From Candidatus Sulfobium sp. (lineage in GTDB: Bacteria; Nitrospirota; Thermodesulfovibrionia; Thermodesulfovibrionales; UBA6898), in assembly GCA_037380845.1 (NCBI GenBank), contig JARRRI010000015.1:1-64000 (forward strand): DNA of 64,000 nucleotides, in the 5' to 3' direction. Both the position numbers and the translations under genes were made by a program. Positions 1,064 through 61,009 of this stretch are shown here, in pieces (within the stretch, counting starts at the first letter, position 1; each line of letters opens with the position of its first letter). The notes beneath the pieces were generated by a model. It was given only the letters and a program-made list of their open reading frames with translations, was not told the origin of the DNA and did not search any database.

Positions 1064-2476
1064 TCATCCCGTCATTTTCTCAAAATGCCCGAAGAGAACC
1101 GGATCGAAGTGCTCCGCCTCAGTCTCCCGCATTATGTCTATCGCTTCTTCCCTGCCAAGAGCTCTCCGATAGGGCCTATCGGTCGTCAGAGCGTCAAAAC
1201 AGTCGGCTATCGCTATTATCCGCGACACAAACGGGATTTCTTCGCCTTTCAAACCCGAAGGATAGCCCGAGCCGTCGTATTTCTCATGATGGTGCCGGAT
1301 CCACAGGGAAATACTCTTCAGCCGCGGTATATGCCGGATCATTCTCGCTCCGATCACCGGGTGCTCTCTGATCATGACCATTTCTTCATCGTCCAGCTTG
1401 CCGCGTTTGTGCAAAATACTTTCAGGCGTGCCTATCTTGCCGATATCATGCAAGAGGGCAGCGAGTCTGAGCCAGTTCATCATATCGGCAGAAAATCCGG
1501 CCTCCTTAGCGATACCAACAGCCGTTTCAGCCACCCTCCTGGAGTGCCCGTAAGTGTAAGGGTCCTTGGCATCTATTGCAAAGGAGAAAGCCTCGGCAGC
1601 ACCGAAAAGCATGCCGCGCAGGTCATCAAAGAGAAAGGCTTTCTTAATGGAAACAGCACAGGCCGACGCCATGCCGGATATGAGTTTTATATCCGTAGAA
1701 TAAAATTCTTTCCCGTCGAGTTTGTCGCTGGCAATAAGGGCCCCTATCATGGCGTCCTCAACAATAAGAGGAACTACGAGAAGGCTCTTGACAGGATAAG
1801 GGAACCCCTCAAAACGTTCGTCCATGCTCACGTCGAAGATGGTAACAGGCTCTTTCTTTTCGCGCACATATCCGAGCAGGCCTCTGTCCGCAGTCAGCGT
1901 CATCATTGAGGCCATACCCGAGTATGCGCCCAGGGACACCTTGGGGAAAAGGATTGCCTTTTCCGGCGGCGGGACCGCTCCCCCCGCACTGCGCGGTTCC
2001 ACTGGAAGCAATCGGTCGGAAGGCATCTCACCCAGCAGGAATATCGAAACGGCGTTCACCGGACAGAGCTTCATCATCTCATCGGCGAGAACGGTGCAGA
2101 TGGTATCCACATCCAGGCCGGTCCCTAATCTCGTCGAGATGCTCCACAACAGGGCGAGTTCCTCGTAGTTCCTTGCCACTTCCCCGGAGAGACTCTCGAT
2201 ATCGTATGCCATTTCGATGATGCCGGAAAGGTTTTCAGCTATGAAGCCCAGCGCCTGTCCCCCGTTCTCCCGGCATGCGGCAACATAACCGACCACGGAC
2301 TCCCTGAGAAGGAGCGGTTTTTCGGCCAAATCAATATGTGGCACGTCGTCGCGAACACCCGTTATTACTTTCTTCTCCCTGTCCAGAAGAAAAAGGTCGG
2401 CTTTCAGACCTTCGGCGTACTGGGAGACAAGTTTCCTCAACGCCTCGATCCCTATCAATTCAGAAATTCTTGACAC
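1064..2476 (-). CDS. GAF + HD-GYP c-di-GMP phosphodiesterase
   Basis: GAF segment (SLLVVPLIVEDAMIGAL), DAKDPYTYGHS, HDIGK, HHEKYDGSGYP. Confidence 0.9.
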   Translation of the reverse strand: MSRISELIGIEALRKLVSQYAEGLKADLFLLDREKKVITGVRDDVPHIDLAEKPLLLRESVVGYVAACRENGGQALGFIAENLSGIIEMAYDIESLSGEVARNYEELALLWSISTRLGTGLDVDTICTVLADEMMKLCPVNAVSIFLLGEMPSDRLLPVEPRSAGGAVPPPEKAILFPKVSLGAYSGMASMMTLTADRGLLGYVREKKEPVTIFDVSMDERFEGFPYPVKSLLVVPLIVEDAMIGALIASDKLDGKEFYSTDIKLISGMASACAVSIKKAFLFDDLRGMLFGAAEAFSFAIDAKDPYTYGHSRRVAETAVGIAKEAGFSADMMNWLRLAALLHDIGKIGTPESILHKRGKLDDEEMVMIREHPVIGARMIRHIPRLKSISLWIRHHHEKYDGSGYPSGLKGEEIPFVSRIIAIADCFDALTTDRPYRRALGREEAIDIMRETEAEHFDPVLFGHFEKMTG

Positions 2477-4774: not shown

Positions 4775-4942
4775 TCAGTCCTGTTCCTTCTCCCTTATAA
4801 AGGCCACCATTCCGACCGGAAGCACGATCCATCCCGATTCCGATTCCAGGTATACGTCTTCTTCACCGACCTCGACAAGCTTGCCCGTATACATCATATC
4901 CGCTGTATGGACCTCGACGACCTTGCCGACAAGTTCTCTCAT
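4775..4942 (-). CDS. Small 55-aa beta-rich hypothetical protein (Sm-like/YuzF-like pattern)
   Basis: Below ORF-track cutoff. GGAGGTGG RBS; MRELVGKVVEVHTADMMYTGKLVEVGEEDVYLESESGWIVLPVGMVAFIREKEQD; co-oriented downstream of der. Confidence 0.75.
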   Translation of the reverse strand: MRELVGKVVEVHTADMMYTGKLVEVGEEDVYLESESGWIVLPVGMVAFIREKEQD

Positions 4943-5005
4943 CTTCCACCTCCGGCATGAGGTGCGGCATGGATCAACCGCACTCCAGCAAAGAATCCTC
5001 AGAGC

Positions 5006-6328
5006 TCAGGAAACTTTTTCTCTCTTTCTCGCCCTCACATAGATGCGCAGCGGGGTCCCCTCAAAGCCGAAATATTCCCTGAGTTCCCGTTCAATGAATC
5101 TCAGGTGATGCTCCCTGACCTCTTCCGGATAATTCGTGAAGACGACGAAAGCGGGCGGCTCTCCTTTAACTTGTGTCATGTAATATATTTTGACTTTTCT
5201 CCCCTTATGAAGCGGCAGTGACAAGTTCGCCGAAATACGGCTGAAAACCCTGTTCAGCTCGCCAGTCAATATTCTCTTCTTCCTTTCCAGGACTATCCTG
5301 TCGATGACAGGAAAAACCTTGGTAATCCTCTTTCTGGCAAGGCCCGACACAGTCAGAACGGGCGCGTACTGGGTAAACCACATCCTCCTTTTCAACTCCG
5401 CCTTCATGGCCTTAACCGATTCGTCCGGGTCACCTACCAGGTCCCACTTGTTCAGGAGAAAGACTGCGCCCTTCCCGTATTCCTTCACTATCCCGGCTAT
5501 CTTGACGTCCTGTTCCGTTATCCCCCCTGCCGCATCGATAACGATGAGGGCTACATCGCAGCGCTCTATGCTCCTTACCGCCCTTACCATGGCGAACCTC
5601 TCCAGGGAGTATCCTATCTTCCCCCTTCTCCGTATCCCGGCCGTATCGATCAAAAGATACTTTCTGGTGTAATATGTGCAATAGCTGTCGATCGAATCAC
5701 GCGTCGTTCCGGGAGCGGAGCCGACGACCATCCTCTTTTTCCCGAGCAGGGCATTGACAAGGGTAGATTTACCCGAATTGGGCCTGCCCACCACCGCCAC
5801 CTTCGGGCACTCGACGGTTTCCTTTCCGTATTCCGGAAGCAACGAATCCAGCCTCTCCATGAACTCTCCATAACCATAGCCGGTAGCGGCAGACAACGGT
5901 CGCAGTTCGTCCGAACCGATGGCATAGAAATCGTAGAGCCTGTCTTCCCTGACGGGGGCGTCTATCTTGTTCACCGCCCATAACACGGGTTTTCCCGAAG
6001 TACGGAGCAGTCTGGCAAGCTCCATGTCTGCCGGAAGAAGTCCCTCCTTCCCGTCCAGGAGATGGATGATGATGTCTCCCTCTTCTACGGCGAAAATAGC
6101 CTGTTCCCTGGCCTGTTCGAACAGGTCTTCGGTGGGGCCGGTATAAAATCCGCCTGTGTCGACAACCATGAACGTTTTGTCGTCCCAGACAGCGTCAAGG
6201 TAATTCCTGTCCCTTGTAACACCCGGTATGTTCTCCACTATCGCGGAATGAGTCCCTGTCATTCTGTTGAACAGGGTCGACTTGCCCACATTCGGCCTGC
6301 CCACGATCACCACCACAGGTTTTGCCAT
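5006..6328 (-). CDS. der: Ribosome biogenesis GTPase Der (EngA)
   Basis: Two tandem G domains (GRPNVGKST, GRPNSGKST), DTGG/DTAG, KH-like C-terminus ending FGFEGTP. Confidence 0.97.
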   Translation of the reverse strand: MAKPVVVIVGRPNVGKSTLFNRMTGTHSAIVENIPGVTRDRNYLDAVWDDKTFMVVDTGGFYTGPTEDLFEQAREQAIFAVEEGDIIIHLLDGKEGLLPADMELARLLRTSGKPVLWAVNKIDAPVREDRLYDFYAIGSDELRPLSAATGYGYGEFMERLDSLLPEYGKETVECPKVAVVGRPNSGKSTLVNALLGKKRMVVGSAPGTTRDSIDSYCTYYTRKYLLIDTAGIRRRGKIGYSLERFAMVRAVRSIERCDVALIVIDAAGGITEQDVKIAGIVKEYGKGAVFLLNKWDLVGDPDESVKAMKAELKRRMWFTQYAPVLTVSGLARKRITKVFPVIDRIVLERKKRILTGELNRVFSRISANLSLPLHKGRKVKIYYMTQVKGEPPAFVVFTNYPEEVREHHLRFIERELREYFGFEGTPLRIYVRARKREKVS

Positions 6329-34204: not shown

Positions 34205-35248
34205 TCAATCCAGTTCAGGCCTTGGTGTCGATCCGGCAGGAGCGGGCAGAACGGGGTACTCCACCTTCGGCTGCACGCCCGTAGCGGCATGCAGAAAGGC
34301 CACGATATCGCTGATGTCCCTGTCGGTCAGGGATACGCCCAGCTGGACGTTGCCCATTATCGACACGGCCTCATCGAGGGACCAGACTTTCCCCGAATGG
34401 AAATAGGGCGGCGTGAGTGCGATATTCCGGAGAGAGGGCGATTTGAAGCTGTATTCGTCCGCCCCGATGGACGTGACCTTGTACCTCCCCTTGTCTCCCT
34501 TGAGAAGGCTGGCATCAGGACGTTCCCTGACGCCGAATTTGTAATAGCCCGTGCCTCCCATATTTATGCCGCCGTGGCAGGCAGAGCATCCCCTGGCCAT
34601 GAACTTCTCCAGGCCGCTCTTCTCCCTGGAACCAAGAGCGTTTTCGTCACCCTTAAGGAACCTGTCAAAGCGCGAGTCAGGAGTCAGGAGAGTCGCCTCA
34701 AACACCTCGATAGCACCGGCCATATTGTCAAAAGTTACCGGGTCCTTCTCTCCCGGGAAGGCATTTGAGAACATCTCGACGTACTGCGGCATGCTCTTCA
34801 GAGTGGCGACCACATTACCGGGCGTATTATTCATTTCGACCGCCGCCTGGATCGGGCCCTTCGCCTGCTCTTTCAGGTCGGGTGCGCGGCCGTCCCAGAA
34901 CTGGGCAATGTTGAAGACCGAATTAAATACCGTAGGTGAATTGCGGGGGCCTTTATGCCAGCCGTGACCGACTGCGGTCTGCTGGAAATCGGCTCCGCCC
35001 ATACCTATGTTATGGCAGGTGTTACAGCTTATCAGTCCGCTCTTCGACAGCCGCGGATCGAAATAAAGGGCTTTCCCGAGATCGACAAGCTGCGGAGTGA
35101 TCGGAATTCCCTTCACTTCCTTAAGCTCATTCGGAACAGGCTTGAAAAGGACCTGTGCCTTCTCCATAACGTCACCGCTTGCGAAGGCGGCGGCTGCAAA
35201 AACCGCAACGGAAACCGCCACCGTTAATATGCCGGCTGTTCGTTTCAT
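34205..35248 (-). CDS. Diheme cytochrome c peroxidase
   Basis: Signal peptide, DPRLSKSGLISCNTCH, QFWDGRA, CSACH, PSLRNI..TPPYFH. Confidence 0.93.
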   Translation of the reverse strand: MKRTAGILTVAVSVAVFAAAAFASGDVMEKAQVLFKPVPNELKEVKGIPITPQLVDLGKALYFDPRLSKSGLISCNTCHNIGMGGADFQQTAVGHGWHKGPRNSPTVFNSVFNIAQFWDGRAPDLKEQAKGPIQAAVEMNNTPGNVVATLKSMPQYVEMFSNAFPGEKDPVTFDNMAGAIEVFEATLLTPDSRFDRFLKGDENALGSREKSGLEKFMARGCSACHGGINMGGTGYYKFGVRERPDASLLKGDKGRYKVTSIGADEYSFKSPSLRNIALTPPYFHSGKVWSLDEAVSIMGNVQLGVSLTDRDISDIVAFLHAATGVQPKVEYPVLPAPAGSTPRPELD

Positions 35249-35517
35249 CCGTTCCTCCTCCTGTTTCGGCTATCTGCGTGAATAGTGAACCATTTTATGG
35301 CCGGGCCGCGAAAGCCGCCCGGCCTCGTTTCCTTAATTTTCAGATTAACAAAAAACTCTGCGTTGTCAAGACAGCTGAGGAACGGTCCCGCCCAAGCCCG
35401 CCGGTAAGTAATAACGATTGCCGGAATAGCTTCCCCGCTTTACAGAAAAAAGGGTTTTATTTATAATTGCTTTGTTGCAGGTTTATGCAATTATAATCGC
35501 TGGATAAGGAGCCGGGC

Positions 35518-36282
35518 ATGAAGAAATTGTTTTTGGGCTTACTCTTGCTGCTGTTTATAGTGAATATTTCGGAAGCAATGCAGACGCGGTTGGTCGTAAG
35601 GGCACGGGCACGGGACGCAAAGTTTATCGGTAGCACGATGGGAGGGGCCCGCGTCGTCGTCAGGAACAGCGAGACAGATGAAATCATGGCGAAAGGGTTT
35701 ACCTCGGGCGGCACCGGAGACAGCAAAAAGATAATGGTCGAACCGCGGCGAAGGGGAATTCCCTTCGCTGGAAAATCAGCGGCGGCGTTCGAGGCCGTTG
35801 TCGACATTGATGAGCCCACACTCGTCACGGTCGAGGTTTCCGCCCCTTATGCCCAGAGACAGTCGCTGGAAAAAACTTCGACTCAGTTATGGCTCATCCC
35901 CGGAAAGGACATTCTCGGCGACGGCATCATTATGGAAGTCCCGGGCTTTTCCGTAGACGTCCTGGCGCCGCAGGCTCATGAAATGCTGAAGCTTTCGGGC
36001 GGAAAACTCACCGTACCGATCAGGGCGAATGTAATGATGATGTGCGGCTGTCCGGTAAAACCCGGCGGCCTCTGGGACGCAAACAGGTATGAAGTCAGGG
36101 CGGTCGTAAAACATAACGGCGTCCCTTCGGGCACGTTACCCCTCCGGTTCGCCGGCAAGACCAGCACGTTCGAAGGAAATCTGGATGTTACGAAAAAGGG
36201 CGTCTATGAAATGACCGTATATTCCTTCGATCCCGTGACCGGAAATGCGGGGGTCGACAAGACAACTTTCATGATCCGCTGA
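35518..36282 (+). CDS. Conserved exported hypothetical protein (MMCGCP motif)
   Basis: AAGGAG RBS, signal peptide, DAKFIG and MMMCGCP motifs. Confidence 0.75.
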   Translation: MKKLFLGLLLLLFIVNISEAMQTRLVVRARARDAKFIGSTMGGARVVVRNSETDEIMAKGFTSGGTGDSKKIMVEPRRRGIPFAGKSAAAFEAVVDIDEPTLVTVEVSAPYAQRQSLEKTSTQLWLIPGKDILGDGIIMEVPGFSVDVLAPQAHEMLKLSGGKLTVPIRANVMMMCGCPVKPGGLWDANRYEVRAVVKHNGVPSGTLPLRFAGKTSTFEGNLDVTKKGVYEMTVYSFDPVTGNAGVDKTTFMIR

Positions 36283-43660: not shown

Positions 43661-44914
43661 ATGGAGAAAGGGATTTCATTCAGCAGAATGGGCGTGATCG
43701 TTCTTATCGTGCTCATGCAGTTGGTGTTCGCCGGGATTTTTGCAGCGTCTGCCCGCGCAAGTGATGTGGATGTTTTAATCGACAAGCTGGTCGAAAAAGG
43801 GGTCCTCACCCGCAGCGATGCGGAGGCGATCCTCAAGGAGACGAAGGAGGCGGAGAGAAAGGAACAGCCGAAGGCAGAACAGATGGCAAAGGCGGAAAAG
43901 GCAGCAGCGCCCTCATGGACAGACAACATCAAGTTCTTCGGCGACTTCAGGCTACGTAACCAGTGGGAGCACCGCGAAGGCAAAGATGCTCGTGACAGGG
44001 GACGGTTCAGGTGGAGATTCGGGGCCGAAGCAAAGGTAGTCGACAACCTGCAGGTCGGCTTCCGGCTTGCCAGCGGCGGCGACGATCCGCGTTCGACAAA
44101 CCAGACTTTTGAAGACATCTTTTCGAGCAAGAGCATGAGGATTGACCGGGCCTACGCCAGGTATGAGCCCGTCGGATGGCTTACTCTCACGGGCGGCAAA
44201 TTCGCAAATCCGATATGGACGACGGCAGACCTGCTCTGGGACGACGACATCAACCCCGAGGGTCTCGCTGCTCATGTGTATATGAAAGGCGAACCGGTCG
44301 ACGTTTTCTTCAACACGGGACTGTTTGTCATGAATCAGTTTAAAAACAGTTCCGAGCCCCTCATGTTCCCTCTTCAGCTCGGCGTAAACTGGAAGGTTGC
44401 AGAAAATACTGACCTGAAGTTAGCGGGCTCCTACTATTACTTCAGCGGCCTCCAGGGAGAGACTTTGGATTTTTCAGCTAAGACCAACACGCTTGTCCCG
44501 GGAGACGGTCTGAAATACAAGTATAACGCCTTCACGGCCGAAACCGAATTGGGTTTGAGGGATGTGATATTTCCTTATGTGGGACTGTTCGGAACTTACG
44601 TCTACAATCCCGATCCCTCCGACAATAACCAGGGCTTCCTCGCAGGTGTGAAGTTCGGCGACAAAAAGGTTTCGAAGGGAGGCGACTGGCAGGTGAAATA
44701 TATGTACCGTTATCTCGAAACAGACGCCTGGCCGGATGTCTTCCCGGATTCCGATTTCTTCGGGGGCGCAACAAACGTTAAAGGTCATGAGGCGGTGGCC
44801 TCCTACGGCCTGATGAAACATGTCACACTCGGTCTCGATTATTATCACAGCAGCCAAATTCATGGTACGACCGACGAGGACCTCTTCCAGACGGACCTCG
44901 TTTTCAAGTTCTAA
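43661..44914 (+). CDS. Putative porin (probably phosphate-starvation induced)
   Basis: Signal peptide, LIDKLVEKGVLT, GDFRLR, STNQT, WDDDINPEG, C-terminal Phe. Confidence 0.85.
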   Translation: MEKGISFSRMGVIVLIVLMQLVFAGIFAASARASDVDVLIDKLVEKGVLTRSDAEAILKETKEAERKEQPKAEQMAKAEKAAAPSWTDNIKFFGDFRLRNQWEHREGKDARDRGRFRWRFGAEAKVVDNLQVGFRLASGGDDPRSTNQTFEDIFSSKSMRIDRAYARYEPVGWLTLTGGKFANPIWTTADLLWDDDINPEGLAAHVYMKGEPVDVFFNTGLFVMNQFKNSSEPLMFPLQLGVNWKVAENTDLKLAGSYYYFSGLQGETLDFSAKTNTLVPGDGLKYKYNAFTAETELGLRDVIFPYVGLFGTYVYNPDPSDNNQGFLAGVKFGDKKVSKGGDWQVKYMYRYLETDAWPDVFPDSDFFGGATNVKGHEAVASYGLMKHVTLGLDYYHSSQIHGTTDEDLFQTDLVFKF

Positions 44915-44933
44915 AGGGCTAACCCTCCACTCA

Positions 44934-44978
44934 GACTTTGCGGGCCGGAAAGACCCGGCCCGTAAAGTCACTTTTTTT
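44934..44978 (+). terminator. Intrinsic terminator
   Basis: GACTTTGCGGGCCGG...CCGGCCCGTAAAGTC followed by T7. Confidence 0.85.
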
Positions 44979-45111
44979 AACCATAAGTTCAACTTCCGGA
45001 AACTTTCACTATCAGATCTGATACCCTCATCCCCGCTGAAGTACTTAATGGACAAGTTTTCTCAAAAGCAAATATTAGCCTGAAGCACGGTTACGGAATA
45101 TGCCGACAAAT

Positions 45112-45167
45112 TTTAATTCAAATGTAATATTCCTCTAACAGGCCCGTAATAAACCCGGTGTTATAGT
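45112..45167 (+). promoter_or_regulatory. Pho-box-like array (4 repeats) plus extended -10
   Basis: TTTAAT/TGTAAT/TCTAAC/CGTAAT at 45112/23/34/45; TGnTATAGT. Confidence 0.75.
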
Positions 45168-45310
45168 GATATAAACAGCTATGAAACCGTCTTTTTAATT
45201 TCGGTCAATTTGACTTTATCAGAGGAGGTGAGGCCACGGGATAAGAATATCGTTGGTATGTCGACTGCGGGGACGCGTGCCCTGCAACACATTTATTGAA
45301 AGGAGAAAAC

Positions 45311-46321
45311 ATGAAGAAAGTTATCACACTGATGGCAGTTTTACTTACAGCGCTTTACTTTTCGCCGGCAGGAGCCGCCGACATGCTCAACGGAGCGGGC
45401 GCTACATTCCCCTATCCGGTTTATTCGGCGTGGGCGTATGCTTACAACAAGGACACCGGGGTGAAGCTGAACTACCAGTCAATAGGATCGGGCGGCGGCA
45501 TAAGGCAGATCACTGAGAGGACGGTGGACTTCGGCGCGTCCGATGCACCCCTCACCCCCGCACAGCTGAAGAAGGACAGGCTCTATCAGTTTCCCGCGGT
45601 CATGGGTGGCGTTGTCCCGGTAGTCAATATCCCGGGGGTAAAGGCGGGGAAGATGAAACTTGATTCAGCCGCCGTCTGCAAGATATACCTTGGTGAATTG
45701 AAATACTGGGACACCCCGGAAATCTCGCGATTAAACCCGGGAATGAAGTTGCCGCATCATGAAATAACCGTTGTCCACAGGTCTGACGGCTCGGGAACAA
45801 CCGCCATATTCACCCACTATCTCAGCGGGGCATGCCCTGCCTGGAAAGAGAAAGTGGGCGCCGGAACTTCCGTGAGCTGGCCCACCGGCATCGGAGGCAA
45901 AGGCAACGAAGGTGTGGCGAACTATACGAGAAGGGCGCCGGATTCCATCGGTTATGTAGAGTTTGCATATGCAGTACAAAACAAACTTGCGTATGTCCTT
46001 CTGAAAAACCCGGCAGGCAATTTCGTTGCCCCCAGCTTCGCCACCTTCGAAAACGCAGCCGCCACGGCGAATTTCGATCCCGGACAGAATTTTCATCTCT
46101 GGCTTGTCAACGCACCGGGAAAAGACGCATGGCCCATTGCAGGGGCAACCTTCATCCTCCTTGCGAAAGAGAAAAAGGATTCCAACCTCAGGACGGTAAA
46201 GTTCTTTGACTGGGCATTCAAACAGGGCGATGCGAAGGCAAAGGAACTGATTTATGTCCCCCTCCCGGAATCTTTAAAGGACAAGATCAGGACTTACTGG
46301 AAAACAAACGGCATAATATAA
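45311..46321 (+). CDS. pstS: Phosphate ABC transporter substrate-binding protein
   Basis: GAGATFP, YQSIGSGGG, DFGASD, RSDGSGTT, GGKGNEGV. Confidence 0.96.
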   Translation: MKKVITLMAVLLTALYFSPAGAADMLNGAGATFPYPVYSAWAYAYNKDTGVKLNYQSIGSGGGIRQITERTVDFGASDAPLTPAQLKKDRLYQFPAVMGGVVPVVNIPGVKAGKMKLDSAAVCKIYLGELKYWDTPEISRLNPGMKLPHHEITVVHRSDGSGTTAIFTHYLSGACPAWKEKVGAGTSVSWPTGIGGKGNEGVANYTRRAPDSIGYVEFAYAVQNKLAYVLLKNPAGNFVAPSFATFENAAATANFDPGQNFHLWLVNAPGKDAWPIAGATFILLAKEKKDSNLRTVKFFDWAFKQGDAKAKELIYVPLPESLKDKIRTYWKTNGII

Positions 46322-47104: not shown

Positions 47105-48088
47105 TCAGACCTTTCTCAGAAGGAAGGCGTGTGCAGAAAGTCCGGCGCCGAAGGCGACCATGATGCAGAAATTCCCCTTTTCCACCCCGCTTGCCAGAAT
47201 ATTGTCGAACACGAACCAGATTATCTTTTCTCCGCCGGTATGAAGCGCCCAGTGCCTTATATTTTCCACGGTGAGCGATCTCGGTTGAAGAAGGTCTCTT
47301 ACTACCTGTGCAACCGCTTTCTTTACCAGGTGAGGGAGTTTTGTAGAAAGCTGGTTATATAGCTGGCCGTTCCTGTGGACATACCGTATGGCGTCCCGGT
47401 CCTCGGGGACATAGCAACTTGAGGATGCGATGAGCTCAAGACCTTCCGGACGGTCCCAGAGCACCGCAGCCGCAGCCCCGTCGCCAAAGAGAGCATTCGA
47501 GACAAGCAGGCTCAGATCATCCCCCATCTGAAATGTGGCGGTACATATCTCTACAGAAACGCTCACTACTGCTTTGCCCCCCGCTCCCCTTGCAAGCGCC
47601 CCTGCTACTTCCAGGTTGGGGATCGCGCCACCGCAACCGCTGCCCACGAGATCATACACCCTGATATTGCGGGCGAACCCCAGTTTTTCGATAAGGTACG
47701 TCGATATGCCGGGACAGATGTAGCCTGTGCAGGTATTGACCACGAGTCCTGAAATGTCTTCGGTCGACAGCCCCGCCCTGCTCAGGGCCTTCTGTACGGC
47801 CTCGGCCGAGAGATCGACGGCCCAGCGCGCGAAACGCCAGATACGGGCGTCGGGGTCCTCGCTCAGGAAATCCTGCGGGTCTTCGATGGCGAAGTACCTT
47901 TTACGGATGGCGGGGTGCGTCAGCAGGCTGTGCATCAGCGAGCGACTCCTGGAACTCAGCCTGTCCGAATACCGGTCCAGGAGATGCTTCTCCACCTCTG
48001 CCTGGTCGGCGGAAAAAGATGGCGTCGCGACCGCGACGGATGCAATATAAACTTTTCCCGCCGTTTTTTCTTCTTCATCCATGATCAT
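47105..48088 (-). pseudogene. Type III polyketide synthase with in-frame deletion removing the catalytic Asn region
   Basis: GSGCGG (Cys), LFGDGAAA, HTGG (His) joined directly to WFV; no GNMSS motif; 327 aa. Confidence 0.7.
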
Positions 48089-49509
48089 ACCTCCATGCCT
48101 AATAACCTGAGTCCCCGCCTTATGGCACTGGTATGTCTCCAGAGAGGGGATCGCACCCCCATCATATATGCCAGCCGATGAATAGCCGGGAGAAGTCGCA
48201 TACCCAGTGACTCAGAATTCATAAAATTCATGTGTTCGTTCATTGAATTCTTTACCTGCTTCAGCATCCAGCCATAATCAACGGTGGGGGAGATGTAAAA
48301 AACGGGTTCAAGCATCTCGGCGGGTGTGAGCGAGAGAAGCCCCTGTTTTCTCGCTATTAAGTCGAGTTCCGTCCCGGGATAGGTTCGTATGCCCATCCCG
48401 AAAAAAGCCGCGTCCTTCGGACGGATAACAGTTTCGGCAAACCGGAGGGTTTCCCTTACCGTCCCCCTGGTCTCATTCGGCCCCCCCATCATGAATATCC
48501 AGACACAGGGGAGATCGTGGCGCCCGACCACCTGCGCCGCTTTATACACATGTTCGGCTGAGAACCCCTTCCCCAGTCCCTCAAGGACGGCGTCAGAAGC
48601 ACTTTCCACGGTAATGCCGATACCCGAAAAACCCGCTCTTTCCATTGACGAGATAAGGTCGTCATCGATAAAGAGGGGGTTCAATTCGAGGCTCTGCAGA
48701 GACGCCTGTGAGCGGGTCCGTATCAGTTCGTGACAAATAGCGAGCGCATGACTATAGGGAGCGTTGAAAACGTTGTCCACAAGCTCAATATTGCGGAATC
48801 CCTTCGATACCAGTCTGCCTATGTTGGCGGCAACCTCTTCAGGGTCGCCCAGGCGGTAACTGCCTCCCTCAATCTTCCGGTACGTACAGTACACGCACGA
48901 AAACTGACATCCAAGTTTTGTCTGAACGGGCCCTGTCGATAGTCTCCTGAGATATGCCGTGACATCGATGTATCGATGAAAATCGGGTAAATCACAGGAG
49001 CAACGGTCCTGCCGTGATCTAAAGTGATTGGAATAAAACGTCTCCTCCTCCAACCACGCTACCCCCTCAAGCGTCTTCGGACATCCATCAGCCAGTTCCC
49101 CGAGAAACTGAGGAAATACGGTCTCCCCGTCACCCAGCACGGCCCATTCGGCGCCGGTAAAACGGAGCAATTCCTCCGGCATTACGGAGACGGCGGCGCC
49201 GCCCAACACCAGAGGGGCAGAGGTTAAATCCCGTGCGGCGCCGATGAGAGGGGGAAGTTCCCTTATGAAGAATTCCGGGTAACTGCAGTCGTTATTATCG
49301 ATGTTCCTTATTGAAAGCCCGACAACGTCCGGCTTCTCCTTTTCAAGTTCGCGCCTGACCGCAACCACGGGGTCGTCCTCAAACATCACGTCCACAAGCC
49401 GGGCCCTGTGTCCGGCCCTCGCCGCGGCTTCCGCCACCATGCATGCCCCAAGGGGAATAACCGGCATAGGGAATTGATTGCGGTTGGTGCTTATAATGAG
49501 AACGTTCAT
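48085..49509 (-). CDS. B12-binding radical SAM protein
   Basis: PVIPLG, GLSIRNIDN, CQFSCVYC, VDNVFN; ATGA-coupled to the PKS. Confidence 0.9.
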   Translation of the reverse strand: MNVLIISTNRNQFPMPVIPLGACMVAEAAARAGHRARLVDVMFEDDPVVAVRRELEKEKPDVVGLSIRNIDNNDCSYPEFFIRELPPLIGAARDLTSAPLVLGGAAVSVMPEELLRFTGAEWAVLGDGETVFPQFLGELADGCPKTLEGVAWLEEETFYSNHFRSRQDRCSCDLPDFHRYIDVTAYLRRLSTGPVQTKLGCQFSCVYCTYRKIEGGSYRLGDPEEVAANIGRLVSKGFRNIELVDNVFNAPYSHALAICHELIRTRSQASLQSLELNPLFIDDDLISSMERAGFSGIGITVESASDAVLEGLGKGFSAEHVYKAAQVVGRHDLPCVWIFMMGGPNETRGTVRETLRFAETVIRPKDAAFFGMGIRTYPGTELDLIARKQGLLSLTPAEMLEPVFYISPTVDYGWMLKQVKNSMNEHMNFMNSESLGMRLLPAIHRLAYMMGVRSPLWRHTSAIRRGLRLLGMEV

Positions 49510-55429: not shown

Positions 55430-55468
55430 GTTACATTAATGTTAAACTTCAGTTAAACGTCAGTTAAA
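55430..55468 (-). promoter_or_regulatory. Pho-box-like array (4 repeats) in reverse orientation upstream of phoB
   Basis: Plus-strand GTTACA/GTTAAA x3 at 55430/41/52/63 (TTTAAC x3 and TGTAAC on minus). Confidence 0.7.
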
Positions 55469-55518
55469 TCGCCCAAAGTCTGTTGCGGCGGAGTGGGCGC
55501 AAATGTTATATCTTAATC

Positions 55519-56235
55519 ATGATGAGTAAAAAGATCCTCGTCGTCGACGATGAGGCTGACATTGTAGAACTCTGCTCTTACAACCTCCGGAAGGAGGGGT
55601 ATGACGTAGCATCTGCACCGGACGGCGAAGCGGCCCTTGGAAAAATCAGGGAAGATAATTTCGACCTGGTCCTCCTAGACTTAATGCTCCCCGGCCTGCA
55701 GGGCGTAGAACTCTGCAGGATCATCAGAAACGATCCGGCGACCGCTTCTCTGCCGATCATAATGCTTACCGCAAAAACCGAGGAACTCGACAAGGTCCTC
55801 GGCCTTGAGATGGGAGCGGACGACTACGTCACCAAACCATTCAGTCCCAGGGAACTCCTGGCCCGCGTGAGGGCCGTCCTGAGAAGATCGGGGGCAAAAG
55901 CGGAGAGGGCGGCGCCGAAAGAAAAAGAAACGGTAATAAGGCTTGGTGCTCTTGTCATCGATCTCTCCGCTTACACCGTAATAAAAGACGGCAAACCGTT
56001 GGACCTCAGTTCTACCGAGTTCCGCCTCCTGTCACATCTGGTCGAAAACAAAGGTAAGGTATACAACCGTGAGCAGCTTCTCAATACGGTATGGAAGGAC
56101 GGGGGCTATGTCGAGCCCAGGACGGTTGACGTCCATATCAGGCGGCTGCGCACGCAGATCGAAGATGACCCGGCAAATCCTCTTTACATAAAAACAAAAA
56201 GAGGAATCGGATATTATGCCAATGCGGATGTTTAA
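55519..56235 (+). CDS. phoB: OmpR-family response regulator, PhoB/PhoP-like
   Basis: LLDLMLPG, IIMLTAK, GADDYVTKPFSPREL, wHTH RTVDVHIRRLR; Pho boxes and pstS nearby. Confidence 0.8.
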   Translation: MMSKKILVVDDEADIVELCSYNLRKEGYDVASAPDGEAALGKIREDNFDLVLLDLMLPGLQGVELCRIIRNDPATASLPIIMLTAKTEELDKVLGLEMGADDYVTKPFSPRELLARVRAVLRRSGAKAERAAPKEKETVIRLGALVIDLSAYTVIKDGKPLDLSSTEFRLLSHLVENKGKVYNREQLLNTVWKDGGYVEPRTVDVHIRRLRTQIEDDPANPLYIKTKRGIGYYANADV

Positions 56236-57594: not shown

Positions 57595-57649
57595 TTTAAC
57601 CTCAATTTAACAGCGGTTTCATAATCCTGCAACGGAAGAACATTACTAT
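57595..57649 (+). promoter_or_regulatory. Pho-box-like array (4 repeats) plus -10
   Basis: TTTAAC/TTTAAC/TTTCAT/TGCAAC at 57595/606/617/628; TACTAT 10 nt later. Confidence 0.72.
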
Positions 57650-57689: not shown

Positions 57690-58382
57690 ATGCTTCTGTG
57701 TGACTTTCACATTCACACAACATACTCTGACGGCTCGGTAGAGCTGAGAAGAACCATCGATATTTTCGGACAGGCCGGCTTCGATGTAATCGCTATTACC
57801 GACCACGTTGTCAACGGCGACAATTCGCTGGGAAAACTCGCTCACCGCTTCAAATATTCAGTCACCTCAAACAACTTTTACGGGTATATCGACCACATAA
57901 ACAGAGAGGCCAGGCGGGCCCGGGAAAAATACGGCATGCTGGTCATTCCGGGCGTTGAAATTAGCAAGAACCATCTAACGCCGGACAGGTCGGCCCACCT
58001 CCTGGTCATCGACATCCGGGATTTCATTCCCGCCTGCTGGAGTTATGAAGAGATCTTCCTGGAGGTGAAAAAACAGCGGGCCCTGACGGTCGCCTGCCAC
58101 CCGCATCATATGACCCTCAAGACCGACAGGGACACCCTCTTCCTCTGGAACAACCGGGACAAGTACGCCCGCTACATCGACGCATGGGAGATAGCCAACA
58201 GGGACGACATGTTCAACGTCGTAGGGCTGAAAAAATATCCTTACATCGCAAACAGCGACTTCCACAAACCAAGACACCTTTATTCATGGAAAACTCTTCT
58301 GAACTGCGAGAAGGACACAGAGGCGATAAAGGAATGCATCAAACACAACAAGGGCGTGGCGATGACGCTCTTCAGGAATTAG
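57690..58382 (+). CDS. PHP-domain phosphoesterase
   Basis: DFHIHTTYSDG, ITDH, PGVE, CHPH, NSDFH. Confidence 0.9.
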   Translation: MLLCDFHIHTTYSDGSVELRRTIDIFGQAGFDVIAITDHVVNGDNSLGKLAHRFKYSVTSNNFYGYIDHINREARRAREKYGMLVIPGVEISKNHLTPDRSAHLLVIDIRDFIPACWSYEEIFLEVKKQRALTVACHPHHMTLKTDRDTLFLWNNRDKYARYIDAWEIANRDDMFNVVGLKKYPYIANSDFHKPRHLYSWKTLLNCEKDTEAIKECIKHNKGVAMTLFRN

Positions 58383-58391
58383 GAGGTGAGC

Positions 58392-59606
58392 ATGACCTTT
58401 TTTTGGATATGCGCCGTCATTGCACTTATTGGACTGGTCGGTTATCTGTTCCAGTCGCTATCAGTGCGGTTCTATACTGCGCCGCGTCTCACGGAGGAAG
58501 AAGGCCGTTACCGGAGTCTTCCGCCCGTCTCGATTCTCAAGCCTCTGAAGGGACTCGATGACGGTCTGTTCGACAACCTCGAAAGCTTCTGCAATCTCGA
58601 TTATCCCGCGTATGAGATCATCTTTGCGCTGCAGAACAGGAACGACCCGGCGGGCAGGGTGGCTGAAAGGATAAAAGAGAAATATCCCTCAAAAGACATA
58701 TCGGTCGTTGTCGAATTCTGTGACGATGGTTTGAATCCGAAAGTAAACAACCTCATACCAGCTTATAAAAGGGCGAAATACGACCTCCTGCTCATCAGTG
58801 ACAGCAATGTCCGCGTCGAGAAAGACTATCTGGCGGCCGTCGCCGGCCATATGACGGATCCCTCTGTTGGGCTTGTCAGCAATATGATCAAGGGGGTAAA
58901 CGGACGCTCGCTCGGCGCCGTTCTGGAAAATCTCCACCTGAATTCCTTCATCGTCGGAAGTGTCTGCTTCCTGGACAAATATCTGGGGCTGCCCTGCGTT
59001 ATCGGAAAATCCATGCTGATGAAGAGGAGCGACCTCGAAGCCATAGGGGGTTTTGCAGCTGTCAAGGACCTTCTGGCGGAAGATTACATCATAGGGCAAC
59101 GCATCCATAAACTCGGCAAGAAGGTCGTCCTGTCGAATCACATTGTCGGGAATGTCAATGAATACTGGGAATTCAGAAAGTTTTTCAACAGACATACCCG
59201 CTGGGGCAAACTGAGATGGCACATCGGAGGGATAAAGTACTTCCTAGAGCTGATCGGCAATGCGGTCTTCATTTCCTGCCTGCCCCTTGTTTTTTCTCCG
59301 CTAAGAGTGTCGCTGCCCCTTGCCGCACTGGTAAGTTCGTTGAAGATAATCTGTGACTACTATATCGGGAGGAAACTCGGAGCGCGCATGAACCCCTTAC
59401 TGTATCTCCTTGCACCGGTTAAGGATATCTTCATAGGCTGCATATGGTTCGTTCCTGTTTTCAGCAACAGGGTCGTCTGGAGAGACAACACATATCTGAT
59501 CGGCAAAGACTCTCAGCTGTTTCCATGTCCTGCCGCCGGCAAGCGGCACTGGAGACCTGCAATTATAGCGGCCATCAGGTCGAAGCTCGCATTATCCAGG
59601 TCATGA
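58392..59606 (+). CDS. GT21/ceramide-glucosyltransferase-like (HpnI-like) glycosyltransferase
   Basis: N-terminal TM, PPVSILKPLKG, NPKVNNL, ISDS, LAED, RHTRW, WR near C-terminus. Confidence 0.88.
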   Translation: MTFFWICAVIALIGLVGYLFQSLSVRFYTAPRLTEEEGRYRSLPPVSILKPLKGLDDGLFDNLESFCNLDYPAYEIIFALQNRNDPAGRVAERIKEKYPSKDISVVVEFCDDGLNPKVNNLIPAYKRAKYDLLLISDSNVRVEKDYLAAVAGHMTDPSVGLVSNMIKGVNGRSLGAVLENLHLNSFIVGSVCFLDKYLGLPCVIGKSMLMKRSDLEAIGGFAAVKDLLAEDYIIGQRIHKLGKKVVLSNHIVGNVNEYWEFRKFFNRHTRWGKLRWHIGGIKYFLELIGNAVFISCLPLVFSPLRVSLPLAALVSSLKIICDYYIGRKLGARMNPLLYLLAPVKDIFIGCIWFVPVFSNRVVWRDNTYLIGKDSQLFPCPAAGKRHWRPAIIAAIRSKLALSRS

Positions 59607-59620
59607 GAAAGGAGGCTTAC

Positions 59621-59858
59621 ATGTCGTCAGCACCTGTGCATTTTTCACAAATAAGCACCACAGACGCCGAACATGACTGCCCATTCGGAAACGTGGAATC
59701 CGGCATCTGTTCCCGGAAACGTGGAATCCGGCATCTGTTCCGCATCGTTGTCTTCCATGGTTATCGGGCCGCACCGCAGGCGGTCTTACTGCAGCAGTGA
59801 CAATTACGACAACTGTCCTGTTTTTCTTGCAAAGATGCTGCGGAAGAAAGATTGGTAA
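59621..59858 (+). pseudogene. Cys-rich microprotein A (CX9CX17CX7C), frameshifted by a 28-bp duplication
   Basis: AAGGAGG RBS; removing one repeat copy restores a 69-aa ORF. Confidence 0.75.
59686..59741. repeat. Perfect 28-bp tandem duplication
   Basis: CGGAAACGTGGAATCCGGCATCTGTTCC x2 (59686-59713, 59714-59741). Confidence 0.95.
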
Positions 59859-59981
59859 ACCTGGACTGTAAAACTCAAGCAGGACTATAGGAAGAGATGC
59901 CGACTAATGACTCGAATGCCGCAGCCGAAATCAGGAGTTCACGTACCGTCCATAAAAAACATCAAGCGTCAGGAGGAAGAC

Positions 59982-60200
59982 ATGAAATGCATGTATCTTG
60001 TCAAGAGGACGAACCTGTCCTGCAGGGCCCTGGAAAGACCTTACGCCCCCAGCCTGTTTCAGCTTACCGAATACTGCAGGAGCACTGCCTACAGGAAGTG
60101 TCCGTTTTATCTTCAGGGCATCATAAGCGCTAACCAAAGAGAAGACAGTGTTGGGCAGCGCCGCCGGAAGAAATGCTCCATGACTTCATTTTGCCGGTAG
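59982..60200 (+). CDS. Cys-rich microprotein B (CX10CX17CX7C)
   Basis: AGGAGG RBS; MKCMYLVKRTNLSC...YCRSTAYRKCPFY. Confidence 0.75.
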   Translation: MKCMYLVKRTNLSCRALERPYAPSLFQLTEYCRSTAYRKCPFYLQGIISANQREDSVGQRRRKKCSMTSFCR

Positions 60201-60208
60201 CTGAGAAG

Positions 60209-60263
60209 GTGAACGAAGATTTCATGTTGCTGAAATAATCCTGTAACTTCTCTTCATTAAAAT
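60209..60263 (+). promoter_or_regulatory. Pho-box-like array plus -10 upstream of microproteins C/D
   Basis: GTGAAC/TTTCAT/TGAAAT/TGTAAC at 60209/20/31/42; TAAAAT 10 nt later; shares ATAATCCTG(C/T)AAC-N7-CATTA with the PHP promoter. Confidence 0.6.
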
Positions 60264-60292
60264 ATATACAGTTCAAAAAAAGGAGGAGTCCA

Positions 60293-60484
60293 ATGAAATG
60301 TCCGGCATGCGGCAGAACAATGTTGGAGACTGGAAGATTCGCCGAGTGTCCCAACATCCTGTGTGATTACCAGGAAGAAATCGAAGGCAGGGAACCAGTC
60401 CTTACGGCAAGGCGTGACTTGCCGCAGATCGTCTTCATCAACAGTCCGAACTACCCTATTCCTGAGAAGCAAAGGACGATATGA
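60293..60484 (+). CDS. Zinc-ribbon-like microprotein C
   Basis: AAGGAGGAG RBS; MKCPACG...ECPNILC. Confidence 0.75.
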   Translation: MKCPACGRTMLETGRFAECPNILCDYQEEIEGREPVLTARRDLPQIVFINSPNYPIPEKQRTI

Positions 60485-60765
60485 CGATTACAATGATAAA
60501 AGAAAGAAGACAGCTTGTCGAGTGCCCTTACTGCAACGCCGAAACCGATGTGTGCTTGGCGTCCCTGAGATCCGTCAAATTGAAGAAGCTGGTAAGGCTT
60601 CACCGCTGCAATGATAACAGCTATTACAGATGCGCGCTTTTCCTGGCCAAAAGGACCGGCCTGACATGCCGGCCGGCTTCCTCTTACACTGAGAACCTTC
60701 AGCCTAGGACCACTTCTTTCCCAGGGATTCCAGACCTGCCCGCCCGAGATCTTCGGGACTCATGA
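60481..60765 (+). CDS. Cys-rich microprotein D (CX9CX17CX7C)
   Basis: ATGA coupling to C; CPYCNAETDVCLASL...CNDNSYYRCALFLAK. Confidence 0.75.
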   Translation: MTITMIKERRQLVECPYCNAETDVCLASLRSVKLKKLVRLHRCNDNSYYRCALFLAKRTGLTCRPASSYTENLQPRTTSFPGIPDLPARDLRDS

Positions 60766-61009
60766 CGATGTGGAATTCCACGCAGGCACTGAACTCCAAA
60801 AACCAGGGCTCCGCAATGCCTGGCACTTTAGAGGCGTCCGGCAGATCAACAATAATGACAGCCGAACGCAGACCGTTGTACTCCGTGAAATAGACGGATT
60901 CCGGTTTTATCTCGTCGAGAATATTTTGAATCTTTTTACCCACCGTGCCTTCTTTTACCGCTGCATTGAAGGACTCGTGAGGGAATTTCACGTGGACAAG
61001 CATTCTCAT
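60704..61009 (-). CDS. Conserved small hypothetical protein (GYD/DUF3303-like pattern)
   Basis: AGGGGAG RBS; KPESVYFTE, AEPWFL, MSPEDL. Confidence 0.75.
   Translation of the reverse strand: MRMLVHVKFPHESFNAAVKEGTVGKKIQNILDEIKPESVYFTEYNGLRSAVIIVDLPDASKVPGIAEPWFLEFSACVEFHIVMSPEDLGRAGLESLGKKWS

Follow-up and report, generated by a model that had tools for sequence, protein, structure and literature searches.

What is encoded by the run of very small, Cys-rich genes near the right end of a 64,000-nucleotide stretch of Candidatus Sulfobium sp. (contig JARRRI010000015.1, positions 1 to 64,000 of the forward strand; hereafter the window), and to what physiology do they belong? The four genes, here called A to D, lie between positions 59621 and 60765 and follow genes for a PHP-domain phosphoesterase and a GT21 glycosyltransferase (Table 1). 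The analysis supports A, B, C and D as real conserved microproteins, apparently cytoplasmic and outside any named family, and the predicted promoter boxes and the gene linkage described below make it very probable that all four genes belong to a Pho-type regulon.

Proteins A, B and D share a signature of four singly spaced Cys residues. The pattern is C3-x10-C14-x17-C32-x7-C40 in B, C15-x9-C25-x17-C43-x7-C51 in D (which has one additional Cys at position 18), and C20-x9-C30-x17-C48-x7-C56 in the 69-aa repaired form of A, and these open reading frames (ORFs) and spacings bear out the CX9-10CX17CX7C proposed in an earlier reading of the DNA sequence (the original prediction). Protein C has a distinct motif, CPAC...CPNILC, unlike that of A, B or D, as its earlier description as a separate CPxC...CPxxxC protein had it. 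Other particulars of the original prediction also hold. The Ala two residues past the second Cys is invariant in 109 aligned A/D-type sequences (A32) and near-invariant in 62 aligned B-type sequences (A16); the Tyr three residues before the last Cys (Y53) is invariant in the A/D type, with an aromatic residue at this position family-wide; genes A, B and C have an AGGAGG ribosome-binding site 5 nt 5' of their ATG codons, the start of gene A lying 15 nt past the GT21 stop; and the ATG of gene D overlaps the stop of gene C as ATGA. The proposed lack of signal peptides agrees with a reading of the N-termini by eye. In a six-frame scan of the 3.18-Mb genome (4,641,178 residues in frames of at least 30 aa) the pattern C.{9,10}C.{17}C.{7}C is matched six times, by B, D, two B paralogues (contigs C3 and C12) and two frames that look unrelated; with four of the six matches being family members, the spacing exceeds chance.

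In this assembly an exact tandem duplication of 28 bp (copies at 59686-59713 and 59714-59741) disrupts the reading frame of gene A. The repair that the original prediction had made is exact, as the repaired protein matches, letter for letter, the 69-aa protein P0157 recovered by an A/D-type profile search. Intact A is present in JGI/IMG on eight contigs, and B, C and D are also recorded there letter for letter, D and intact A only through the gene calls of one source. The stretch is contained in 13 marsh or salt-marsh metagenome runs, with no RNA run among them, four of which (X1, X2, X7 and X9) were compared. X9 has no cover at the duplication site; in contigs from all three covering runs (X1, X2 and X7) the 28 letters at 59686 are absent and the sequence is otherwise identical over 59400-60800. 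X1 and X2 are possibly source samples, and X7 is not so marked. Because these contigs lack the 28 bp, the break in gene A is a feature of this assembly and not of the organism. The duplication itself probably reflects an error of assembly or polishing in this genome record, or else a minority allele; the contigs show that intact A is present and would be compatible with a minority allele that has the duplication.

The B-type family is large and confined, in the named records, to one phylum. A word-indexed search with B as the only query returned only B itself. The two paralogues (P0002 and P0003, on contigs C3 and C12) are found by BLASTP at E = 1e-11, with 15 of 48 columns invariant, and a profile built from the three sequences matched 459 representatives at E <= 1e-3 among 1.84 billion proteins, 135 of them at E <= 1e-10. 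Most of these are 55-95 aa long, and 132 of 150 representatives retain both the x17 and the x7 spacing. Residues C3, C14, Y21, P23, Y31, C32, C40 and P41 are invariant in the 62 aligned members, and S24, F26 and E30 nearly so. Of 41 related genomes 25 carry B-type genes, and many of these have 2-6 copies. In a sample spanning the phylum Nitrospirota the type occurs in 87 of 301 genomes and 52 of 122 genera, and it is also common in f22, a distant family of that phylum (38 of 64 genomes); all 17 loci in named records are from Nitrospirota metagenome-assembled genomes, with titles giving Nitrospirae, Nitrospiraceae or Thermodesulfovibrionales. The B core has a ratio of nonsynonymous to synonymous substitution rates (dN/dS) of 0.24-0.49 in pairwise comparisons with orthologues. 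At one locus in a distant phylum member (L080, G108:C11:25500-29500) four B-type paralogues stand head to tail at approximately 1438-2208 (-), which shows that B-type gene arrays recur beyond the window's lineage.

The A/D-type profile, made from 15 sequences, gave 373 clusters at E <= 1e-3. Among the 120 clusters listed, all are nameless or called 'hypothetical protein', none has a precomputed Pfam domain, the named sources are Nitrospirae or Nitrospirota metagenome-assembled genomes, and both the x17 and x7 spacings are kept in every one. Besides A32 and Y53, residues C20, P21, C30, C48, C56 and F59 are invariant in the 109 aligned sequences. The window's A is a typical member, with dN/dS of 0.24-0.28 against three orthologues. 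D is divergent: it has NSYYRC in place of NYDNC, its extra CPYC is not conserved in the A subtype, and it carries an unconserved C-terminal extension of about 36 residues that is not in homologues, which end in ...FLAK-x-LR-x-R. Two further subtypes occur in relatives, an E type (CP-[YH]-L-[KR]-GS...C...KLCM-x-R-H-[YH]-E-x-C-S-V-Y) and an F type (C-x9-C-x14-C-x6-C-P), neither of which was found in the window's genome. Homologues of C, which keep the CPxC...CPxxxC motif, are present in five of 40 relatives, a count that includes the two weakest matches, whose loci were not inspected. In G007:C133 and G015:C4 the gene is flanked by GT21 and an A-type gene, in G007:C19 it comes straight after GT21, and in G001:C50 it stands alone. 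The core of gene C has a dN/dS of 0.20, one of the C comparisons being saturated.

Are these types one family? The original prediction had placed A, B and D together as diverged paralogues. The comparisons support A and D as paralogues of one family; B does not stand as a close paralogue, its kinship at profile level being weak but reciprocal. BLASTP of A/D against B gave no in-register match, and neither A nor D is detected by the three-sequence B profile. When the profiles were run on the 59,051 six-frame ORFs of this genome, the A/D profile ranked the B-type P0003 (E 0.029) next after the members of its own family, and the B profile likewise ranked A (E 0.025); in relatives the A/D profile weakly matches three B-type genes (E 4.8e-5 to 9.4e-4). 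Alignment of profiles with hhalign gave P = 8e-5 and a probability of 33% for A/D against B, 1.3e-4 for B-E, 2e-3 for B-F and 0.05 for A-E, with nothing for A-F or E-F; the subtype alignments were chosen by their Cys patterns, which favours both these and the profile scores. In addition to the x17/x7 spacing, the A/D and B types have in common CP at the first Cys, Ala two residues past the second, an aromatic residue before the third, another three residues ahead of the fourth, and P-x-[FY] directly behind the fourth. Common descent of the two types is rated likely, short of proof.

Searches of databases lend no name to these proteins, which the original prediction, too, had assigned to no named family. 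Profile searches against Pfam and NCBIfam gave no match at a curated cut-off or at any meaningful score for A (its C-terminal part and intact P0157), B, C or D, and the 62 B-type members have no common family in either collection. Against zinc-ribbon families the best result for A, B or D is an E of 0.034 (D), scoring far below the cut-off, and the three differ from zinc ribbons and C(P)XCG proteins in having isolated Cys residues and no two CxxC knuckles. Gene C encodes a motif of two Cys pairs, for which the zinc-ribbon pattern would be CPxC and CPx3C some 12-15 residues apart, and has only sub-threshold Pfam matches, to Sgf11 (E 0.14) and, via its G007 homologue, to HVO_2753_ZBP (E 0.068). 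Sequence searches of the PDB with alignments A2 and A5 gave no match at E <= 10, neighbours in the ESM Atlas are unnamed Nitrospirota clusters only, and searches of a limited literature collection found no paper on the four-Cys family. AlphaFold2 models have mean predicted local distance difference test scores of 57.9 for B (62 sequences) and 55.1 for A (109 sequences), and a wide structural search (VIA) with the low-confidence B model gave a meaningless best Z of 2.3. In both models two strands lie between Cys1 and Cys2, followed by one helix that runs up to Cys3 and another that begins at Cys4; this same order of elements agrees with one shared build for A and B and is too weak to name a fold.

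What then ties the genes to phosphate? Direct repeats with an 11-bp period are typical of binding by PhoB/OmpR-type regulators, and repeats of this kind precede the PHP-GT21-A-B unit, the C-D pair and pstS (Table 1). An exact 13-mer, ATAATCCTGYAAC, is present at 57621 and at 60235, in both cases closing a series of hexamer repeats in 11-bp steps, before the PHP-GT21-A-B and C-D genes respectively; allowing up to one mismatch, there are three matches in the window against 0.10 expected, and none of 100 shuffles reaches three. The original prediction of a Pho-boxed glycosyltransferase operon, with a separate box for C and D, fits this shared 13-mer and the further box before pstS, and the promoters thus have in common a predicted box of the sort by which Pho regulon membership is judged. 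In relatives a like box was seen before pstS (L015, L038 and L065), before B-pstS (L060), before A-B-pstS (L023), before D-type genes (L038 and L039) and before the C gene of G001, in a scan with a loose pattern that also has matches inside genes and for which no expectation was computed. A promoter and terminator scan found little besides a promoter-like site over the PHP box. By inference, phosphate limitation would induce these genes. The third copy of the 13-mer, with one mismatch, is at 35474-35486 (-) in the divergent region between ORFs 34205-35248 (-), which has two CxxCH motifs by reading, and 35518-36282 (+). A triple TTTAAC at 11-bp steps, reading on the minus strand, is found at 55441-55467 just before the gene for the OmpR-family regulator.

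The A/D-type genes are closely linked to the GT21 gene. GT21 orthologues (E < 1e-100) occupy 19 loci in 18 of 40 relatives, and at 12 of these loci an A/D-type gene lies within 250 bp downstream on the same strand, with four further loci (G035, G040, G032 and G007:C19) having one within 3 kb. Of the 19 genomes with GT21, 16 have A/D-type genes, as against none of the 22 without it (Fisher P = 9e-9, the genomes being kin and not independent). G016, at first sight a carrier of an A/D-type gene without GT21, was rejected as a cross-match of the A/D profile on a B-type gene. Gene orders in which the subtypes meet include GT21, A, E, B, an OlsB-like N-acyltransferase and an acyltransferase in L018; histidine kinase, receiver, A, B and PstS in L023, an order seen at two loci; histidine kinase, receiver, D-type, an additional small Cys ORF, F and B in L038; and GT21, A, F, B and PstS in G002, of the same genus. 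Between A and B the window (59858-59982) lacks about 445 bp relative to G002 (L048:950-1521), a stretch that carries a box-like site and most of the F-type gene there, of which only the 3' end region aligns with the window.

B-type genes are linked to the Pst phosphate transporter and to two-component signalling. In the 17 named loci they stand directly before pstS(CAB) in five (L060, L061, L063, L065 and L070), convergent with phoU-pstBACS in one, and beside histidine-kinase, response-regulator or lone receiver genes in four; seen from the transporter, eight of 29 pstS loci of relatives have a B-type gene within 1.1 kb upstream. PhoU recurs among the neighbours, alongside pstS, PsiE (L065), the OlsB-like gene and low-molecular-weight (LMW) phosphatase-family genes (L052, L062 and a partial one in L053); in L052 this last kind of gene comes after A-type and E-type genes, and in L062 it adjoins the B-type gene. 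A GH1 gene is a neighbour in L059 and in the window. This recurrence, in phosphate-starvation gene clusters, of a widespread Nitrospirota family with proteins of about 65 residues makes the microproteins look like real, unstudied parts of that response. In L015, the one inspected locus with a gap of about 1 kb, a 208-aa ORF (1728-2351, +) with a weak hemerythrin match below cut-off (E 4.8e-4) lies between the B-type gene and pstS; four other relatives show a gap of similar size.

In protein P0026 and in genomes G020, G006 and G005 a B domain is fused in frame, at the N-terminal side, to a receiver domain (Pfam E 1e-24 to 5e-26); by reading, the acidic pocket, Thr and Lys usual in receivers are present in three of the fused domains, and an A-like Cys ORF lies 5' of the fusion gene in the fusion loci. 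A search with alignment A3 confined to proteins of 330-2000 aa gave no match, and is uninformative on fusions. A candidate sigma-70 fusion (P0040) was rejected since its linker is out of frame, L067 having a complete sigma-70 gene and then a separate B-type gene, and long frames around B-type genes in five other genomes are read-through artefacts. In the window's own genome (L004, G000:C3, cluster at 4794-5678, -) the C3 paralogue of B is followed by a 129-aa ORF and then by a protein of about 100 aa, which is homologous (E 2e-17) to the gene after the B-receiver fusions in G020, with L017 and L025 as the loci compared. The 129-aa ORF has no Pfam match and a faint likeness to a receiver domain by BLASTP (E 0.011); this cluster may be a split version of the fusion.

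Our preferred reading, held tentatively and with slightly less than even confidence, is that A, B and D, together with C, are translated cytoplasmic microproteins of an unnamed Nitrospirota superfamily, and that they bind metal, belong to the Pho regulon and serve as small subunits to partner proteins rather than as enzymes. The superfamily core would span about 45 residues (C-P-x-[LF]... C-x-A ... [YF]-C ... [YH]-x-x-C-P-x-[FY]), in which the four invariant Cys residues probably hold one metal centre; this would pin an N-terminal hairpin, bearing Cys1 and Cys2, to two short helices, the first closed by Cys3 and the second opened by Cys4. We lean to zinc over iron or an iron-sulfur (Fe-S) cluster because B-type genes are also common in the distant family f22. 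A and B would be read from the boxed PHP-GT21 promoter, and C and D from the second promoter with the same box. The A/D type may cooperate with the membrane GT21 enzyme in producing a glycolipid free of phosphorus, and its basic ...FLAK-x-LRRR tail would rest on the surface of the membrane, while the B type may serve receiver-domain signalling around the Pst transporter and the zinc-ribbon-like C would be a regular companion of the others. Each proposed pairing, GT21 for A/D and receiver/Pst for B, is a possibility to which we give somewhat less than even chances.

Several observations weigh against this reading. The OmpR-family regulator encoded upstream scores 269.5 bits on the PhoB model against a cut-off of 296.2, and the boxes are putative sites assigned to Pho from their position before pstS. 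GT21 is found with no A/D-type gene in G026, G029 and G033, and the kinship of the compared genomes means that the co-occurrence statistic is an overstatement. A and B are adjacent at just six of 18 A/D-type loci. B-type genes are also found far from any Pho gene: the two B paralogues in the window's genome lie beside a flavodiiron-like gene and in another small-gene cluster, and B-type genes directly follow a sigma-70 gene at two of the 17 named loci (L067 and L072). Finally, the low AlphaFold2 confidence for both families makes the predicted fold and Cys geometry provisional. A bolder version, that the proteins form a phylum-wide and unrecognised layer of the Pho response, with at least four subtypes of metal- or redox-sensing microproteins having a new fold and metal-site geometry, each wired to a different Pho operon and switching its partner (GT21 for A/D, receiver signalling and Pst for B) by metal or redox state, seems unlikely.

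In a different explanation, for which the sigma-70 neighbours speak, the proteins would be Fe-S sensors of redox state or iron that bind the transcription machinery or response regulators, WhiB-like in function, and tie Pho to redox or iron. Four invariant, isolated Cys residues with Cys-Pro at the first and last, the B-receiver fusions, and the weakly hemerythrin-like ORF between B and pstS in L015 are all in keeping with such a sensor, and AlphaFold2, which models no cofactor, would be expected to give poor models, as it does. However, the sigma-70 fusion proved to be a frameshifted read-through, no Fe-S family is matched in Pfam or NCBIfam, the spacing differs from the WhiB motif, and the prevalence in f22 is less expected of a labile cluster if those bacteria are aerobes, which is a guess. 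We regard an Fe-S sensor as distinctly unlikely. The predicted sharing of a transcription unit with a PHP-domain metallohydrolase would fit metal buffers or chaperones of the Pho response, supplying zinc to the PHP phosphoesterase or handling As(III) for an LMW-phosphatase/ArsC-like protein, and the LMW-phosphatase-family genes noted above and the several paralogues per genome, some in tandem arrays as in L080, would suit that role. One four-Cys site per 60-70 residues nevertheless makes a poor buffer, the conserved non-Cys residues (PYVPS-F-EL-EYC, ASLSSM and NYDNC) indicate a specific surface, and the tight linkage is to GT21 and pstS and not to PHP or LMWPc, so that only a small probability attaches to this role. 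Precursors of ribosomally made, Cys-modified peptides, or untranslated chance ORFs, are highly improbable: the genes are indeed short, Cys-rich and side by side as paralogues, with a B12-binding radical SAM gene 10 kb off (48085-49509), but the whole 45-residue domain is conserved while the tails vary, with no split into conserved leader and variable core, no modifying enzyme recurs in the 17 + 10 inspected loci, and purifying selection, strong ribosome-binding sites, hundreds of homologues and in-frame receiver fusions all speak against both.

How do the proteins of the preferred partner-subunit reading compare with known systems? The nearest of these appear to be analogies and not relatives. 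WhiB-like proteins, with the motif Cys-x(n)-Cys-x2-Cys-x5-Cys, are likewise small four-Cys proteins that bind transcription proteins, through a [4Fe-4S] cluster, and some B-type genes follow sigma-70 genes; the spacing here is x9-10, x17 and x7, the phylum is another, and there is neither a Whib Pfam match nor a genuine sigma fusion. PgaD, encoded with PgaC, resembles the A/D type in being the product of a short, translationally coupled gene behind a membrane GT2-type enzyme, found only where the enzyme is present, as A/D-type genes are with GT21. Such subunits of GT2 synthases are membrane proteins not known to have a Cys motif, whereas the A/D type has no hydrophobic span by reading. DUF1127, for its part, is not known as a four-Cys domain. 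DUF1127 small proteins, studied in Agrobacterium and E. coli, are reported to bind the sensor kinase PhoR, and these proteins are like the window's in being well under 100 residues and in having a link to phosphate uptake, contact with a two-component system and an influence on pst expression (PMC12501420). They differ in that there is no sequence likeness and no Pfam DUF1127 match, and in that the window genes are themselves in Pho-boxed operons. Zinc-finger micro-proteins with two C(P)XCG knuckles, such as those of Haloferax volcanii, are reported to be under 70 aa with four Cys residues and a presumed single metal site (PMC11241148, PMC10716476); protein C resembles this kind, whereas A, B and D have no CxxC knuckle. 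ComFB of Bacillus is reported to be a small cytoplasmic four-Cys zinc protein with a regulatory role (PMC4381287), but no Pfam family, ComFB included, matches B, D or the C-terminal part of A at E <= 1.

Small Cys4 microproteins in a stress regulon are of a known kind, and what would be new is an unnamed domain whose two proposed partners can be tested. Proteins of this size as a rule escape annotation or stay 'hypothetical', and a family that has hundreds of members, a distinctive signature, a well-defined regulon and two specific candidate partners turns an unknown domain into a directly testable one. If the partner model were true, it would add a control point in membrane-lipid remodelling and phosphate uptake, in a phylum that matters for nitrification and sulfur cycling.

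Table 1. Coordinates of genes and sequence elements in the window.
Feature	Position	Strand	Description
pstS box	45112..45139	+	Pho-box-like direct repeats TTTAAT, TGTAAT, TCTAAC in 11-bp steps, 155 bp before pstS
pstS	45296..46321	+	Phosphate-binding protein; far from B in the window, adjoins B-type genes in relatives
OmpR-family response regulator	55483..56235	+	PhoB-like; score below curated cut-offs
PHP box	57595..57633	+	Pho-box-like direct repeats, 11-bp period, before PHP-GT21-A-B; contains ATAATCCTGCAAC
PHP-domain phosphoesterase	57690..58382	+	Opens the unit that ends with A and B
GT21 glycosyltransferase	58386..59606	+	HpnI-like (Pfam/NCBIfam); conserved upstream partner of A/D-type genes
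Gene A	59621..59858	+	A/D-type four-Cys microprotein, 69 aa with one 28-bp copy removed; frameshifted in the assembly
Tandem duplication	59686..59741	+	Two exact copies, period 28, 28/28 identical; splits gene A over two frames
Gene B	59982..60200	+	B-type four-Cys microprotein, 72 aa; AGGAGG 5 nt upstream
C-D box	60220..60247	+	Pho-box-like direct repeats before C-D; contains the 13-mer ATAATCCTGTAAC
Gene C	60293..60484	+	CPxC...CPxxxC zinc-ribbon-like microprotein, 63 aa
Gene D	60481..60765	+	Divergent A/D-type microprotein, 94 aa; conserved domain at about residues 12-58

Other features of the window and its genome complete the description. In this genome pstS is 14 kb from the A-D array; it is preceded, within 43661-46321, by a Porin_5-family gene (43661-44914) and then the Pho-box-like site, and there is no pstCAB in the 1 kb after it, the next large ORFs being on the opposite strand. 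The region of gene D that encodes its unconserved tail (60655-60765) runs 62 nt into the end of a convergent 101-aa ORF (60704-61009, -), which is without a family match and whose DNA is 79-80% conserved in two relatives. About 1 kb from the C3 paralogue of B is a Cys-rich ORF of 116 aa (L004, 4158-4508, -) with several CW and CxxC motifs.

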